The notes: generated by a model from the sequence alone, not told the origin. Positions 4,574 through 10,258 are shown, counted from the stretch's first letter. The stretch is DNA of 64,000 bases from a virus (IMGVR_UViG_3300029288_000002:1-64000); one strand, 5' to 3'. Program-made: numbers and translations.

Positions 4574-4922
4574 TCTGGGGCGATATAATTATAGTACCTT
4601 GCCCCAATATATAATCTTTGCTGGTAGCAGTTTCTTGTAATACTGGCTGATAAAGGTATTTGCCAAATAACGCCTCAGTATCTGCCGTAGCCAATGTAAC
4701 AGTAACAATATTAGGTAAAGTAACAACCCCGTTTACAGCTTTTGTTAAAACCGTTGTTTGTCCATATAGTGCCATTCTAAAAACGCATGTAAAACCAGTT
4801 AAATCAGCAGGATTAAGCAGTGAAGAGTCAGTAAAATAATGAAATGTAAATTCATATTCAGTACCAGCAATAAATGAAACTTCGCCTAAATTATTCAAAG
4901 TTTCGTATGATGTATAACTCAT
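4560..4922 (-). CDS. small baseplate/tail-associated protein (BppU N-terminal-like)
   Basis: 120 aa, 'PADLTGFT...VTLATADTEALFGKYLYQ' pattern; RBS AAGGAG. Confidence 0.55.
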   Translation of the reverse strand: MSYTSYETLNNLGEVSFIAGTEYEFTFHYFTDSSLLNPADLTGFTCVFRMALYGQTTVLTKAVNGVVTLPNIVTVTLATADTEALFGKYLYQPVLQETATSKDYILGQGTIIISPQIASS

Positions 4923-4924
4923 TG

Positions 4925-5092
4925 TTACTCCTTATTGGGGGCATTCAATAATTTAGCCACCTCTTTTATGTTGTTTTTTGCTATATATAATGCCTCCAAA
5001 TTAGTATCAGTTGCATCAATTTTTAAAATATTGAGGGCTTGATAGCACTCAGTTAAACACTTGTTGACTTTTTCTAATAATTCTTTTTCCAT
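4925..5092 (-). CDS. 55-aa hypothetical protein (MEKELLEKVNKCLTECYQALN...), below ORF-track cutoff
   Basis: Translated by hand; GGAG RBS, ATG 5092, TAA 4925; fills the intergenic gap. Confidence 0.75.
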   Translation of the reverse strand: MEKELLEKVNKCLTECYQALNILKIDATDTNLEALYIAKNNIKEVAKLLNAPNKE

Positions 5093-5103
5093 TTTAAAAT
5101 CTC

Positions 5104-6552
5104 CTAAACAATGACATTGATTAATAAACCTTTTTCAAAAACCAGTGTAACACCGCCGACAGGAACACTCGCTCCCATTGCATAATCAGTAGTATTTACT
5201 TTTATAGTAGAACATTGGGAAACATCTAATCCTAATTCGTTTATATATAAAGAACTTGTGCCTTGACCTAAAGAAATGTAGTTTCCTAAGACAGGATCGT
5301 CTACTTGCAATAATATTTCCACAAGTGACGGAGTTGGAGATGAAGCAATTAATTCCAATCCGTTATCTGTAACAATTCTTGGCAATCCAGTTCCCCCCAT
5401 TTCTATAGTGATGTGAGGCCCGTGCATACTGCCGCCATAAATAAAATCACCAACCATCAAATCACCACTAAACACAGGATCGCCCACACTGGTTGTAATA
5501 TTATCGGCATATATATTCCCACTAAATGTTGCAGTTGATCCACTTATGTCTAAAGCACCCCAATGTAAGTCTCCGTTACTCTTGAGATAGTTTACTAAGT
5601 CTGTAGTATATAAACCGTCTGATGTAATAAGTAAACCGCCAATATGACCTGTGGTTAGTTCTGCAGCATTACCGCTCAACGTACCAGTAAATATAACATT
5701 TCCATTTGGATCAGCATAAAACTGATCTTCGTATGTTCCTGTAACTAATTTCTGAATACGAAAACCCTCTGTTGGGCTAATTAGAATCTTAGTATTGTTG
5801 CTATTACCATAAACCGTAAAATCAGCATTGGTCAGAGTCGCGCCGTTGCCGTCCACTGAAAACGTAGCATCCTCATTTTCTATAACCAGTTTGTTACCTG
5901 CTAAAAGATGACCACAAATTACATCTCCTATAATAAGAAGCAATGAAGAATCTCGTTTATTATTTGTAATATTGTCAATTTCATTTTTTGACATAAATTC
6001 AATTCCGTTTTTTGAAATAAACCATATTTCACAAAACCCGCCAATCTCTTCACACACCAATTGTTTATACGTGTTTTTTATTACTGTTTTAACATTTCTC
6101 GACATTTCTAATTCTTTCTCTAAAATAGCAATAGCATTTTTACTTTTTATTCCGGCAGAAAAAATACACATATTTCCTTTTGTGGGGGATTCTAATTTAA
6201 TAACATTAAAACTATTATATTCTGATATTTGATATGCCTCTATTTCGTCATTGCTCATTTTTACAACAATAATTTCTATGTTAAAATAATCTTTTGACCT
6301 TTTTATACCAATGTTTTTTAGTTCGTTTGATATTTTATAAACGTCAATATGTTCTTGATTCTCAAATAATTTAATTACATCTTCTACAATTGATAATTTT
6401 CCAGAACAAAATATAAGAGCATTTTTTATATGGAATATTTTTTTATAATTATTACCCACTCGTTCCCCAACTCCGTTTATAATTGTGGACACAGCAGTAT
6501 CAGACGCCATAATTAAAGTATCTCCGTTATTTAATATAATACAGTTGCTCAT
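5104..6552 (-). CDS. fusion: N-terminal proteasome-beta/Ntn-hydrolase-like domain (~aa 1-205) + C-terminal half of the tail-tip protein
   Basis: After Met removal: Ser1, Asp17 (LIMASD), 'KKIF', 'FCSG', 'SAG', 'EEIGG..EIWFISKNG' parallel proteasome-beta motifs. From 'IIGDVICGHLLAGNKLVIENE' onward it is a G/T-rich tail-like sequence. Confidence 0.7.
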   Translation of the reverse strand: MSNCIILNNGDTLIMASDTAVSTIINGVGERVGNNYKKIFHIKNALIFCSGKLSIVEDVIKLFENQEHIDVYKISNELKNIGIKRSKDYFNIEIIVVKMSNDEIEAYQISEYNSFNVIKLESPTKGNMCIFSAGIKSKNAIAILEKELEMSRNVKTVIKNTYKQLVCEEIGGFCEIWFISKNGIEFMSKNEIDNITNNKRDSSLLLIIGDVICGHLLAGNKLVIENEDATFSVDGNGATLTNADFTVYGNSNNTKILISPTEGFRIQKLVTGTYEDQFYADPNGNVIFTGTLSGNAAELTTGHIGGLLITSDGLYTTDLVNYLKSNGDLHWGALDISGSTATFSGNIYADNITTSVGDPVFSGDLMVGDFIYGGSMHGPHITIEMGGTGLPRIVTDNGLELIASSPTPSLVEILLQVDDPVLGNYISLGQGTSSLYINELGLDVSQCSTIKVNTTDYAMGASVPVGGVTLVFEKGLLINVIV

Positions 6553-7506
6553 TTTATGATCTCCCCTTTTTTAAATAACCTTCTTGATTCCAATCTTTCA
6601 ATATCATATAAGAATACGCAAGATCATTATTAGCCAAAGTTTCTAAATTTAAAAATAATGTTTCAGGGTTCGGAATATTTTTTCCAGATTTTATTCTTAA
6701 TATTTTATATCCTTTTGTTTTTAAAAACTCGTCTCTTTTTCTATCCCTTTGTTCTTCATGCCAATACCAAGAATCGTATTCTACATTTATTTTAACATCA
6801 TTAATTATTACAACTATATCTAATAATAGTTTAGATTCTGGAACATTTGCAAACACATTTTTGCATCCATATTTATCAATTAATATTTCGCATACTTTTT
6901 TTTGTTGTGATGATTCGCATGTCCTTGTTAAAAATAAATTTTTACGACAAATATCTAATTGAAAAGCAAAATCAACACCATATTTTTTTCTATTGGTCTT
7001 CTTTGTTTTTTCCTTTTTTGCTAATTTCGCCTCTTTACTCATTGATTGTTGAGAATTTGATATTTTCTTAGCGATGTCTGGATTTTGAGAAATAAATTCT
7101 ACTCCGTATCTTGAAAACACTGTGCTTTTAATGGTGTCTTTTACAATTTGCCGATACATAGGACTGCTTACTCCATACAATGCCATATTAACTTCTTTAT
7201 CTTTTTTACCTATACACTGTTGACAGCAATCCTTTTTTATAACAGAATCGTTCCTTTCTCTAAATAACGTTTTATATATTTTGGTAAATTCTTTATAGCA
7301 ATAATCACACTTTAATAGCACTCTATAATGACTTCCTTTTGTCAAATGTTCTATTGGAACAATAATAATATCATATAGTTTAACATTATATCCCAAACGA
7401 TTGTAATGCTTTATGTTTTTTCCCCCTATTTTTACTTCTACAAATTCTGTTAAAATCATATTATTAGTTCCTTATGATATATTTTTTTTGAAATTGCCAT
7501 GTCTTT
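5929..7506 (-). mobile_element. coding insertion splitting the tail-tip gene (endonuclease + Ntn-protease-like domain)
   Basis: Both tail halves are in the same reading frame; removing these 1578 nt gives ...GSTAYGII|GDVICGHLLAG...; insert is visibly AT-richer than its flanks. Confidence 0.65.
6554..7459 (-). CDS. free-standing putative homing endonuclease (Zn-binding N-terminus, YGV repeats, DUF559/Vsr-like nuclease C-terminus)
   Basis: CDYC/CCQQC; three YGV repeats; 'VEYDSWYWH...DRKRDEFLKTKGYKILRI'; basic, AT-rich. Confidence 0.75.
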   Translation of the reverse strand: MILTEFVEVKIGGKNIKHYNRLGYNVKLYDIIIVPIEHLTKGSHYRVLLKCDYCYKEFTKIYKTLFRERNDSVIKKDCCQQCIGKKDKEVNMALYGVSSPMYRQIVKDTIKSTVFSRYGVEFISQNPDIAKKISNSQQSMSKEAKLAKKEKTKKTNRKKYGVDFAFQLDICRKNLFLTRTCESSQQKKVCEILIDKYGCKNVFANVPESKLLLDIVVIINDVKINVEYDSWYWHEEQRDRKRDEFLKTKGYKILRIKSGKNIPNPETLFLNLETLANNDLAYSYMILKDWNQEGYLKKGRS

Positions 7507-9501
7507 AATTATTCCATACGCAGTGCTACCATCAGGAGTATCTATTTTTCCCAATGCTAATTTGGCAGTATTCCAATTATCGTCTGTAAATGCCAACACT
7601 TGTGAAGTTAGCCAGCACTGTTCGTCTTTATATATACCAGGCACACCTGGCGTAGCGAGTTCTCTCCCTCGTAACCCGTGTTGATCTATTATAATTTCTT
7701 GATTTGTGCTATTCACTAAATTGTTCACAGTAGCATTTAACGCAGAAGTAATAAAAGTGGAAACACTACCTTTATACTCTTTATCCCAATTGTACCAACT
7801 ATATTGCCCAAAATCTACACTTGTTCCTGTCTTGACTGTTTGACCAACCAAATCACTGTACACAAACTTTCCATTGTCTAAGCGCAATCGGTTAGAAAAG
7901 CTCAATGTAAAATCTTCTGGATTATCATAGTCAATTGCAATTTCAAGAACAACTGTTGTAATCGTAGCAGGAATATAATTTGTAGTTTGCGGAATACTGG
8001 CATCAATTGTAATCTCACAACCAGGAGCTAATTGATTGGTGAAGTAAAAATAGTCTTTAATGAAGGGAAAGTTGATAGTGCTTGCAGTAAACTCATATCT
8101 TGGAAGAGCTACTTTCGCCAAAACTTCTTGACCTTGATCATATAGTTCCTGTGATGTTTCTTGTATTTCCACAAGTGTCATAGTGTCTGTTTGAATAAAG
8201 TTATTGTTTTGATACGTATTCTCAAATATAAAATTGTTCAACTCTGTTAATTGAGGGTCAGTAAAGTTTGTTTCAAAATCCAAAAGAGTATTTATAGCAG
8301 TTATTTGTGCTTCAACAGCAGTAATCTGAGCTTCTTTATTAGTAATTGCAACATTGTCATTTGCTACAACAATCTCAGCAGCGTCTAATTCTGCTTTTTT
8401 AGGTGCATAAAACAATACATAATTAGAAGCAGGGTCAGTCGAATAAGTACCCCAACCCGCATTAATCATTACTTTTAGTTCATCTTGTAATGTCGCCACA
8501 GTTCCTTCATCTGTAGTTAAAGTGGATTGTAATGTAACCAACTCCCCATTGTATGTTTTATATGATGTTATCAAATTAGCATAAGCTGTTTGATTTGCCG
8601 CTATCAGGGACTCCCAGGCAGAAATAGCACTTATTAACCCAGCAGACATCCATTCTGTTGACTTATAATAATTAAAATTATAAATCTTATTACCACCAAT
8701 GGGGTTTACAGAACGAATATCCATATCACCAGCACCATAAACATACAAAACAGTCGTTATTTCATCTGATAATTCTGTGAGACTTCCGCTTTTTAAAAGA
8801 TTATCGAAAGAAATGTAAATATCTGTGCTTGTTGCTGCGGTTGCTATTGCTTTTGCACTTACTGTTTTCAATGTTGTATCAAATATAAACACACATCCGT
8901 AGGTTGTTTCAACATCGTTCATTAGGAAATCATATACAGTAGTATCGTTTACATCTGTAAACGTTCTATATTTAGTCAACAATGCTCCATCTACAGTACC
9001 AATTGTCCAATTTGGAGCGTATGCTGTTAGTATTTTTCCAAGTAATCCGTTAGCAGGGGTTAATACATCGTGTAATGGTACAGCAGCAGTAGTACCAAAC
9101 GCTAATATTTTCTTATTGCTCAATTCCATTTCTATAGATTTTGCAGTTACCAGTTTGGTATCTATCTCATATCCTTCTTTTTGCTCTTCTACTTCAGTAA
9201 CAATAAAATATCCGACTCCCACCAATTCAATTATCTTTTTGCTAACGATGTGATTATATGGATAGTTGGCAGGAAGGTATTGACTGGCTGGTACAACTTG
9301 TATTTTCGGAATAGTAAACGTTAAATCTGAAGCAGAGTTATAGCGCAATGTTAATTTTACATTATTAGAAACACTATCAAGACAAAATTGACGCGAATAA
9401 TCAGGATTACATAGATATATACCTGGCTTTTCTAATCTGTTGAATTTGTCATATATTACATACATTTTACCCACCAACCTTTCTCGCAAGTTTATATACA
9501 A
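7456..9501 (-). CDS. tail-tip / tail-associated (Tal-like) protein, N-terminal half
   Basis: Follows Dit; central coiled coil; 'QCWLTSQVLAFTDDNWNTAKLALGKI' pattern; ends with short extension KDMAISKKIYHKELII. Probable start MYVIYDKF at 9465. Confidence 0.75.
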   Translation of the reverse strand: MYINLRERLVGKMYVIYDKFNRLEKPGIYLCNPDYSRQFCLDSVSNNVKLTLRYNSASDLTFTIPKIQVVPASQYLPANYPYNHIVSKKIIELVGVGYFIVTEVEEQKEGYEIDTKLVTAKSIEMELSNKKILAFGTTAAVPLHDVLTPANGLLGKILTAYAPNWTIGTVDGALLTKYRTFTDVNDTTVYDFLMNDVETTYGCVFIFDTTLKTVSAKAIATAATSTDIYISFDNLLKSGSLTELSDEITTVLYVYGAGDMDIRSVNPIGGNKIYNFNYYKSTEWMSAGLISAISAWESLIAANQTAYANLITSYKTYNGELVTLQSTLTTDEGTVATLQDELKVMINAGWGTYSTDPASNYVLFYAPKKAELDAAEIVVANDNVAITNKEAQITAVEAQITAINTLLDFETNFTDPQLTELNNFIFENTYQNNNFIQTDTMTLVEIQETSQELYDQGQEVLAKVALPRYEFTASTINFPFIKDYFYFTNQLAPGCEITIDASIPQTTNYIPATITTVVLEIAIDYDNPEDFTLSFSNRLRLDNGKFVYSDLVGQTVKTGTSVDFGQYSWYNWDKEYKGSVSTFITSALNATVNNLVNSTNQEIIIDQHGLRGRELATPGVPGIYKDEQCWLTSQVLAFTDDNWNTAKLALGKIDTPDGSTAYGIIKDMAISKKIYHKELII

Positions 9502-10258
9502 AGCTAATAGAAGAAATTTGTCCGCTTACAGTATATGCGTTGATTCCATTTAACAATCTTGGCCAAAAACCATTAAAATTGTCAAATATAGATAACCCGC
9601 TTGACGAATAGATCATTTGTAAATTTGAATTGATCGTTATAGTTTCATTAGCCACAATACTATTCTGAGTAGTGGTAATTACATCTGTATTATTTGTTAG
9701 TACTAAATTACCGCCACCTGTTCCGTTTACTACAGCAGTTACTACAGGATATGTGTAGTCAATGTTGTCAGTAATATTGTTTATTGTAAATGTGGCACTG
9801 GAAGGAGGAGTCGAGTATGTAACGGTATAAGGGTTAATATCCTGCCATCCCCAGGGGGAGTCACAATGGACAGTACAATCAAAGCCCACTATTTTATTAC
9901 CGATCCTTTGTATTTTCGGTTCTTTCAAAAAAACGTTAAAATAAATATCTTGCATATCATATTGCATAATTCTAAGTCTTTTCCATTGTAATTGCCCAAA
10001 TAACCATTTTTGTACCAAAGTTGTCTCCATTGCGGTTAGTTCTTCTGGTGTATAAATGGATACTGGAAATTCCAAAACTGGCGTTTGTTTAACGCCTAAT
10101 AGAAAAGGTGTTGATCTACGAAAAGGCATATCTGTTACAAGTTCAACATCATTCGCGCCATTTGTAGTAACATCGCCACCCGAAGGCGATGCTATATACA
10201 AATTATAAGTTTCACTTGGTATGCCATCAAATGTAAACGTGTGAGCAAAGAAACCCAT
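9467..10258 (-). CDS. distal tail protein (Dit-like)
   Basis: 263 aa immediately after the tape measure gene; 'FTFDGIPSETYNLYI', 'CDSPWGW', 'WPRLLNGINAY'. Confidence 0.75.
   Translation of the reverse strand: MGFFAHTFTFDGIPSETYNLYIASPSGGDVTTNGANDVELVTDMPFRRSTPFLLGVKQTPVLEFPVSIYTPEELTAMETTLVQKWLFGQLQWKRLRIMQYDMQDIYFNVFLKEPKIQRIGNKIVGFDCTVHCDSPWGWQDINPYTVTYSTPPSSATFTINNITDNIDYTYPVVTAVVNGTGGGNLVLTNNTDVITTTQNSIVANETITINSNLQMIYSSSGLSIFDNFNGFWPRLLNGINAYTVSGQISSISFVYKLARKVGG

Follow-up and report, generated by a model that had tools for sequence, protein, structure and literature searches.

A split phage tail gene with a host-mimicking peptide and a proteasome-like domain: a candidate intein-free protein-splicing element

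Introduction

When a mobile cassette breaks a phage tail gene in two, why should the same short peptide be present on both pieces, and what is an enzyme of proteasome-like fold doing between them? These questions are raised by a 64,000-nucleotide stretch of viral DNA (IMGVR_UViG_3300029288_000002:1-64000, hereafter the window), which is part of a complete 165-kb phage record. Three minus-strand genes abut in this region: the first encodes the N-terminal half (N-half) of a tail protein, the second a free-standing homing endonuclease, and the third a proteasome-like N-terminal nucleophile (Ntn) domain fused to the C-terminal half (C-half) of the tail protein. The repeated peptide, referred to below as the element, begins IIKD near the end of the N-half and IIGD where the tail protein resumes in the C-half. 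A first-pass annotation of the window had proposed that the element was duplicated as protein but not as DNA, that both copies were recognition sites for one enzyme, and that the short basic tail following IIKD was a leaving group or docking peptide. Here we examine these proposals using intact and split homologues of the tail protein, structural models of the Ntn domain, and comparison with known systems.

Results

Positions within the element were numbered relative to its acidic residue, P1, which corresponds to Asp667 in the N-half copy (N-copy) and to D210 in the C-half copy (C-copy); IIKD and IIGD therefore represent P4-P1. On the minus strand, the N-copy is encoded by ATA ATT AAA GAC (7512-7501; I664, I665, K666 and D667), and the C-copy by ATT ATA GGA GAT (5934-5923; I207, I208, G209 and D210). 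Codon use differs at all three shared residues, and the two copies match at 12 of 36 nucleotides from P5 to P7', in agreement with the view that the duplication is one of protein rather than DNA. IIKD and IIGD are the opening four residues of a degenerate direct repeat spanning 11-18 codons; Val occupies P1' of the C-copy in the window. In the window alone, a match to the pattern II.D is expected by chance at 5e-4 per position, or ~1% within +/-10 positions, and the IIKD/IIGD match could be fortuitous, as the first-pass annotation had cautioned. This caution loses its force beyond the window: an element of the form h-h-x-[D/E] (h, hydrophobic) was present at both places in 16 non-redundant loci, and recurrence in 22 loci rules out a chance match across loci. 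A fresh target-site duplication and a recent gene conversion were likewise rejected as sources of the repeat, as the repeated 36 nt share 11-22 nt and the same codon is used at 21 of 53 identical residues.

Using the last 200 residues of the N-half as query, we recovered 96 proteins, 79 of which were ~900 aa in length with a recognizable junction, while 9 ended shortly past the motif. The element was found once in each of the 79 uninterrupted homologues, and three phage records were likewise single-copy. It was found twice in all 9 split N-halves identified with this query, as well as in each of the 22 loci examined, where the Ntn gene was always located downstream. The order N-half, endonuclease or endonuclease remnant, and Ntn-fused C-half recurred in 20 metagenomic or viral loci as well as in Psychrobacillus phage Perkons; by source, 3 loci came from IMG/VR and 1 from genome contigs, while the phage collection contributed Perkons only. 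In all, the element was present in 22 distinct N-half ends and in 105 Ntn-fused C-halves. The motif is kept at both ends of the homologous cassettes that we collected, as would be expected were the first-pass proposal correct.

We next consider how each position of the element behaves in intact and split proteins. Intact homologues follow the pattern G, L, V, A/G, D/E, then V, I, V, G, R/N, L, L, with P1 occupied by Asp in 40 and by Glu in 33 of the 79. The corresponding residue of the 22 N-half ends was Glu (10), Asp (9), Asn (2) or Ser (1). Since an acidic P1 is native to the intact protein, and Asn and Ser also occur in split N-halves, an acidic P1 alone does not mark a cleavage site. Residues beyond P1 of the N-copy bear a signature of their own: P1' was Lys in 15 of 22 N-copies compared to 0 of 79 intact proteins, and P4' was Gly in only 2 of 22 (mostly Ser or Cys instead) compared to 78 of 79. 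P5' was Lys or Arg in 14 of 22 N-copies, and P7' was Ile, Leu or Val in 21 of 22. The tail retains native character at P2', P5' and P7'. The element as a whole reads h-h-x-[D/E] followed by x-h-x-x-[K/R]-x-h. When scored over P1'-P7' against the profile of the intact proteins, the N-half tail returned a value of -3.35, ~6 standard deviations above that of shuffled tails (-7.64 +/- 0.71). Across 25 loci or clusters, the tail extends 7-20 residues beyond P1, with none falling below 7. These findings bear out the short basic tail described in the first-pass annotation as a genuine feature of split N-halves.

The 105 Ntn-fused C-copies resemble the native sequence, and their P1' residue varies (Val 23, Arg 20, Thr 18, Ala 10, Phe 10, Gln 8, plus others). 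The dipeptide KD, with Lys at P2, was limited to 3 of the 22 N-copies (that of the window at 7501-7506, P0201 and P0204) and was absent from all 79 intact proteins. At P4-P1, the two copies from a given locus were identical at 2.19 of 4 positions, compared to 1.29 for copies from different loci (permutation p 1e-4), a difference that relatedness among the loci may inflate.

The origin of the upstream copy is most clearly seen in a near-isogenic pair of alleles, consisting of the intact P0170 (locus L037) and the split P0168/P0169 (locus L006), to which it is sister on the N-half tree. The flanks of L037 and L006 share 82% DNA identity, and the insert measures 1565 nt. Homology on the N side stops at the Gly preceding the motif, while homology on the C side restarts at the first residue of the motif. 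The downstream copy of L006 differs from the intact allele by synonymous changes only; its upstream copy matches the host sequence at 0-2 nt per codon (2, 1, 1 and 1 for P4-P1, and mostly 0-1 for codons of the tail). In a more distant pair involving L036, the right boundary fell at the same place, and the left one was less well defined. The upstream copy thus consists of cassette DNA that imitates, as a peptide, the host residues lying past the cassette, and its divergence in DNA despite retention of the peptide pattern suggests that selection acts on the peptide. We view such selection as the best account of the cassette-borne copy, as the first-pass annotation had surmised; its exclusion of a fresh target-site duplication stands as well, given that the copies have diverged in DNA and that the upstream one is cassette-borne in L037/L006. 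By homology, IIKD of the window would represent the start of the cassette-borne mimic and IIGD the resumed host sequence, which shifts the N-side junction from where the first-pass annotation had it, although the codons are those that it gave. The split allele P0201 (L036) and the intact allele P0170 (L037) come from related phages in one sample and sequencing run, a situation permitting homing.

An AF2 model of the Ntn domain (pLDDT 91) contains helices at residues 53-64, 71-81, 137-150 and 154-165. Its structural matches were 20S beta subunits (Z 15.5-19.1; best rmsd 2.8 over 176 aligned residues), Anbu (Z 16.2), HslV (Z 14.6), BPH (Z 12.9) and Connectase (Z 9.8-9.9), and the Foldseek match had an E value of about 1e-9. 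Residue 2 of the model superposes on Thr1 of 20S beta subunits. Residues D18, K38, G51, G171 and G172 are invariant in 129 sequences, with M1 and S2 present in at least 90%; D18, K38 and G51 are the equivalents of Asp17, Lys33 and Gly47. A HMMER search against 1.8 billion representatives identified 246 clusters, and among the 150 matches listed, the Ntn domain began at or a few residues from the called N-terminus in nearly all, the exceptions resembling 5'-extended gene calls or truncated open reading frames (ORFs). Moreover, in each of 120 representatives with Asp at position 18, Ser comes directly after the initiator codon, which is read as M, L or V. Identity of the Ntn domain across lineages is only about 30%. 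Searches with the Ntn domain yielded no match in Pfam at E up to 1, including the Proteasome family, none in a sequence-profile search of the PDB, and nothing meaningful in NCBIfam; a weak match was obtained to phrog_1040, annotated 'peptidase HslV family' (3e-5). Taken together, these results suggest that proteasome kinship of this domain is visible solely through its predicted fold and catalytic residues.

Free-standing Ntn genes of ~200 aa were also considered as candidates, and were mostly contig truncations. Only L030 (1626-2300) has a stop codon within a contig: its Ntn ORF is 209 aa long, and a different reading frame carries on into the C-half, starting ~10 residues ahead of the element. 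Either the Ntn enzyme is truly free-standing here, or the change of frame is a sequencing error.

The first-pass annotation had suggested modelling the Ntn domain together with a junction peptide. Complex predictions of Ntn residues 2-200 with the N-half end (residues 632-681) gave an ipSAE of 0.56 (0.56, 0.00 and 0.65 in individual runs), compared to 0.00 for the best of 3 controls, with contact agreement of at least 19% and partner pLDDT of at least 25. In calibration, 58 of 80 solved complexes attained the mark, as did 2 of 110 mismatches; scores at or below 0.60 made up 7 of those 80 together with both mismatches. The score is thus above that of the controls, but is rated as weak.

Features of the window are summarized in Table 1. 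The N-half matched phrog_6211, a minor tail protein, at profile positions 10-622 of 1168 (E 8e-68). The endonuclease matched Pfam DUF7487 (4.9e-9), DUF559 (1.5e-4) and MTES_1575, as well as phrog_12131, homing endonuclease (2e-20). The fibre-like part of the C-half (residues 207-482) aligns with the C-terminal ~290 residues of the intact ~900-aa homologues. The host gene is assigned as Tal, encoding the tail hub, since structures of tail-associated lysins and baseplate hubs were matched by the predicted model of one such uninterrupted homologue, P0227; the break lies at the boundary between the end of the hub and the start of the fibre-like extension. In the model of the intact homologue, P5-P2 closes the last hairpin of the hub, while P1-P11' forms a coil (pLDDT 64-74) that would represent an accessible domain boundary.

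The cassette consists of the mimic peptide with its stop codon, the Vsr-like homing endonuclease, the Ser1 proteasome-like Ntn domain and the linker. Its insertion point, where hub meets fibre, immediately precedes a conserved h-h-[A/G]-[D/E] x-h-h-G-[K/R]-h-h stretch; because its first 11-18 codons encode a diverged copy of the host stretch that follows it, both products carry one element each. A group I intron was rejected as an explanation for the insert, which is translated and conserved as protein, and an Rfam search of positions 4800-9600 at E up to 0.1 returned no match. We looked for a near DNA match to the locus and found none, and tblastn of the C-half against phages likewise gave no match.

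Table 1. Coordinates of the split tail gene and its cassette within the window.
Feature	Position	Strand	Remarks
N-half of Tal / baseplate-hub tail protein, 681 aa including cassette-borne tail	9501-7456	-	phrog_6211
Upstream (N) copy of the element, P4-P7', residues 664-674, starts IIKD	7480..7512	-	probably cassette-borne, by homology to L006/L037
14-residue basic tail after Asp667, plus stop codon	7456..7500	-	last codons share ATGA overlap with endonuclease start
Free-standing homing endonuclease, 301 aa, Vsr-like nuclease in C-terminal part	7459-6554	-	Pfam and PHROG matches
Ntn-fused C-half, 482 aa; first ~190 residues proteasome-like, remainder continues the tail protein	6552-5104	-	
Proteasome-like Ntn domain, residues 1-191	5980..6552	-	AF2 model, 20S beta structural match
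Ntn catalytic codon Ser2	6549-6547	-	
Ntn catalytic codon Asp18	6501-6499	-	
Ntn catalytic codon Lys38	6441-6439	-	
Ntn catalytic codon Gly51	6402-6400	-	
Low-confidence linker, residues 192-206, from Ntn fold to resumed host sequence	5935..5979	-	pLDDT 66-79, without regular structure
Downstream (C) copy of the element, P4-P7', residues 207-217, starts IIGD	5902..5934	-	native host sequence
Fibre-like C-terminal portion of the tail protein, residues 207-482, stop codon included	5104..5934	-	

We then asked how the split state is distributed. On the N-half tree, made with FastTree, it requires at least 8 changes for 9 rows, no fewer than with random labels; split alleles that are scattered in this manner are as expected for a mobile element. 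Of the 22 loci, 16 retain an intact endonuclease, 4 have a remnant of it or none, and in 2 it has been replaced; the Ntn domain and the tail were kept in all. Several loci illustrate decay of the endonuclease. In L012 (1874-1953) it has been lost in frame, the tail running into what appear to be the last ~15 endonuclease residues and overlapping the Ntn start by 8 nt. In L016 (622-744), a 123-nt spacer still encodes N- and C-terminal fragments of the endonuclease, and L030 (1420-1629) contains a 69-aa C-terminal remnant. A 72-nt spacer in L013 (4429-4500) has no endonuclease trace.

Two loci, L023 (1960-2940) and L031 (3020-3990), lack an endonuclease and have a different layout, in which an N-half with a 7-residue tail is followed by a ribosome-binding site, an Ntn-less C-half, and then a second, Ntn-fused C-half. 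The Ntn-less C-half opens with Met and then P3-P1 of the element, and it overlaps the N-half's 7-residue tail by 11 residues. These loci appear to provide one hub with two alternative C-terminal modules. The Ntn-fused C-half of L013 (4501-6654) ends in a Peptidase_S74 domain, an intramolecular chaperone, and this tail protein would thus contain two self-processing modules. Finally, the locus of the cultured phage Perkons (L001; MT325768.1 98362-103711) is annotated as encoding a tail protein, a hypothetical protein and a putative tail fiber protein, with neither the proteasome-like domain nor the endonuclease among the annotations.

Discussion

The findings discussed above lead us to favor, albeit tentatively and with slightly less than even confidence, the view that both copies of the element are recognition sites for a transpeptidation that exchanges the N-half tail for the C-half. 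Once the initiator Met has been removed, the Ntn domain would use its Ser1 to attack the N-half element and expel the basic tail as leaving group. The same chemistry, acting in cis or in trans, would detach the Ntn domain from the C-half, and the amino group newly exposed at the N-terminus of the latter would then resolve the acyl intermediate. The net result would be full-length Tal together with an Ntn~tail by-product, in a ping-pong reaction of the Connectase style performed by a different branch of the proteasome family. The scissile bond may lie after the acidic residue, which would provide the same type of P1 at both sites and leave four cassette residues in the product, or at the host/cassette boundary, which would be scarless at the cost of unlike P1 residues (Gly versus Leu or Ser). 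Recognition of both copies by the Ntn enzyme, the position of the bond and the ligation itself are what we infer from four observations: an N-terminal catalytic Ntn domain, a mimic that resembles a leaving group and is never lost, an element that is present on both chains, and the link to a selfish endonuclease. A tail that is never shorter than 7 residues and that bears a derived signature supports this view, as a transpeptidase would need such a leaving group, while a hydrolase or a structural domain would not.

Several observations weigh against this view. Connectase is a more distant match to the predicted fold than are HslV and the hydrolytic beta subunits of the proteasome, both helix pairs are kept, and the two cleavages must share one active site. 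The complex prediction provides weak support, and one of the three runs scored 0. Acidic P1 and hydrophobic P4/P3 are native to the uninterrupted protein, and some of the conservation thus requires no enzyme. While 78 of 79 intact proteins have a small residue (A, G, S) at P2, this position is relaxed in the N-copies, which have K, T, R or C there; were P4-P1 of the N-copy retained in the mature protein, the same constraint on P2 would be expected. Finally, within-locus covariation at P1'-P7' was not significant (p 0.1).

An unlikely alternative is that the system serves for docking and cleavage only. The mimic tail would dock the N-half on either the C-half or the Ntn domain, which would hydrolyze both elements and so remove the tail and itself, and the halves would remain associated non-covalently in the trimeric tail tip. 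The fold and catalytic set of the Ntn domain are indeed those of the hydrolytic proteasome beta subunits and HslV, one protease fits the presence of the same element at both sites, and genes split by endonucleases can function as non-covalent pieces, as with Aeh1 nrdA and the SbcD-like case, both cited in PMC2677866. However, under this model the N-half could simply stop at P1 and the C-half begin at P1', yet a tail of at least 7 residues was present in 25 of 25, and each split allele also bears the cost of a 200-residue enzyme.

We consider it rather doubtful that the repeat is structural, with each half requiring its own element straddling the break, for strand complementation or trimer nucleation, and the Ntn domain not acting on the motif. 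This model would account for conservation of the element in intact proteins that lack an Ntn domain and for the relaxed P2 of the N-copy, and the aromatic-Gly preceding the N-copy lies with P5-P2 in the last beta-hairpin of the modelled hub. The same modelling nevertheless leaves P1-P11' unpaired with the P side, so that the tail and the P side of the C-copy would each be partnerless. Moreover, the invariant Ser2, Asp18, Lys38 and Gly51, as well as the obligate N-terminal position of the domain, would be left without a substrate, and the tail-specific Lys at P1' and Ser/Cys at P4' would be unaccounted for.

It is quite improbable that the Ntn domain is instead a virion-borne peptidase of the tail tip directed against the host envelope, with the gene split to provide a free N-terminus and the repeat a by-product of insertion. 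Lytic domains are common in Tal proteins, homologues are annotated 'tail endopeptidase', and a requirement for a free N-terminus would force the gene to be split. Proteasome-type sites, though, cleave extended L-peptides, and peptidoglycan stems would be unusual substrates; furthermore, neither the constant link to a homing endonuclease nor the selected, cassette-borne mimic peptide would be explained.

Equally improbable is a neutral relic, in which the upstream copy is an old, decaying duplication or read-through into the 5' region of the endonuclease, constrained only by the ribosome-binding site and start of that gene: although the distal tail is fast-evolving, with 4-23 nt of it overlapping the start of the endonuclease, and DNA identity between copies is near random, the tail's similarity to the native P' side far exceeds that of shuffles, its signature is common to lineages with highly divergent Ntn domains, it is not truncated despite an AT-rich, stop-prone context, and it survives loss of the endonuclease (L013, L016, L023).

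Returning to transpeptidation, the cassette as a whole may, with somewhat greater reservation, represent a new class of selfish, intein-free protein-splicing element, in which an endonuclease, a proteasome-family transpeptidase and a mimic peptide mend the broken tail protein by recombining its two chains at the recognition site that they share. If so, protein splicing would have arisen twice, the second time on a proteasome scaffold borne by a mobile element of large Bacillota phages. This would be the first biological role for a phage branch of the proteasome family and a natural example of Connectase-like protein recombination, and the enzyme would be a candidate sequence-specific ligase with an 11-residue tag. 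In L023 and L031, the layout gives a hint that such chemistry could attach alternative receptor-binding ends to a single hub, which might account for exchange of receptor modules at the tail tip. One carrier, Psychrobacillus phage Perkons, is in culture. Should the transpeptidation model fail, a conserved mimic peptide and an obligately N-terminal catalytic domain would still need explaining.

How does this system compare to those already described? Our survey of the literature found no description of a phage proteasome-like ligase or of a split tail gene of such arrangement. Connectase recombines two proteins sharing a recognition sequence of ~20 residues via an amide intermediate at its N-terminal Thr1/Ser1 (PMC7980362). 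It resembles the system discussed here in its Ntn fold, in an N-terminal Ser/Thr exposed by removal of Met, and in acting on two proteins with the same recognition sequence, although the substrates here are putative and known from sequence. In both cases the short leaving peptide of the primary substrate resembles the N-terminus of the incoming partner, and cleavage occurs, or is here proposed to occur, after an acidic residue. The differences are equally clear. Connectase lacks the first helix pair (PMC8665760), while both pairs are kept here, and the Ntn model is structurally nearer to 20S beta (Z 19) than to Connectase (Z 9.8). Neither KDPGA nor PGA was found, and KD is confined to 3 of 22 N-copies, so that the likeness to Connectase that the first-pass annotation saw in the KD dipeptide was a coincidence. 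In addition, the enzyme here is fused to its own putative substrate and resides on a mobile endonuclease cassette in phages. Based on structural distance, the retained helix pair and the lack of KDPGA, we rejected membership in the Connectase family (DUF2121).

HslV and 20S beta subunits are the best structural matches, and equivalents of their Thr1, Asp17, Lys33 and Gly47 are conserved, but the Ntn domain is fused to a tail fibre with no sign of an ATPase partner. Fuchs, Alva and Lupas (2021; PMC8665760) described FC4, a Firmicute-restricted cluster of proteasome-like proteins around WP_076223917.1 with phage-tail-like C-termini, to which no function was given. The Ntn family is probably FC4, the two being likened by description only; that work gives for FC4 no structure model, split-gene context, link to an endonuclease or junction repeat.

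Inteins were rejected as an explanation based on the wrong fold, the absence of an intein Pfam match, and a residue after the putative junction (V/R/T/A/F) that is not the obligatory Cys/Ser/Thr. In Aeh1 nrdA/mobE and the SbcD-like case, both cited in PMC2677866, an endonuclease likewise splits an essential phage gene and the pieces gain short peptides; unlike the present case, those pieces have neither an enzyme domain nor a reported extension that mimics the start of the partner. The closest parallel in layout is provided by the fractured genes of Dassa et al. (2009; PMC2677866), in which a split intein occurs together with a free-standing Vsr-like or GIY-YIG endonuclease. There, as here, a free-standing Vsr-like endonuclease separates the two pieces of an interrupted phage gene, coding regions abut or overlap, and the invading element provides the upstream ORF with a short extension and stop, and the downstream ORF with its start. 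In contrast to those genes, the cassette has no HINT/intein fold, its downstream module is proteasome-like, and its upstream extension mimics the host rather than being an N-terminal intein fragment. The layout is that of a fractured gene in which a proteasome-like domain and a host-mimicking tail replace the split intein.

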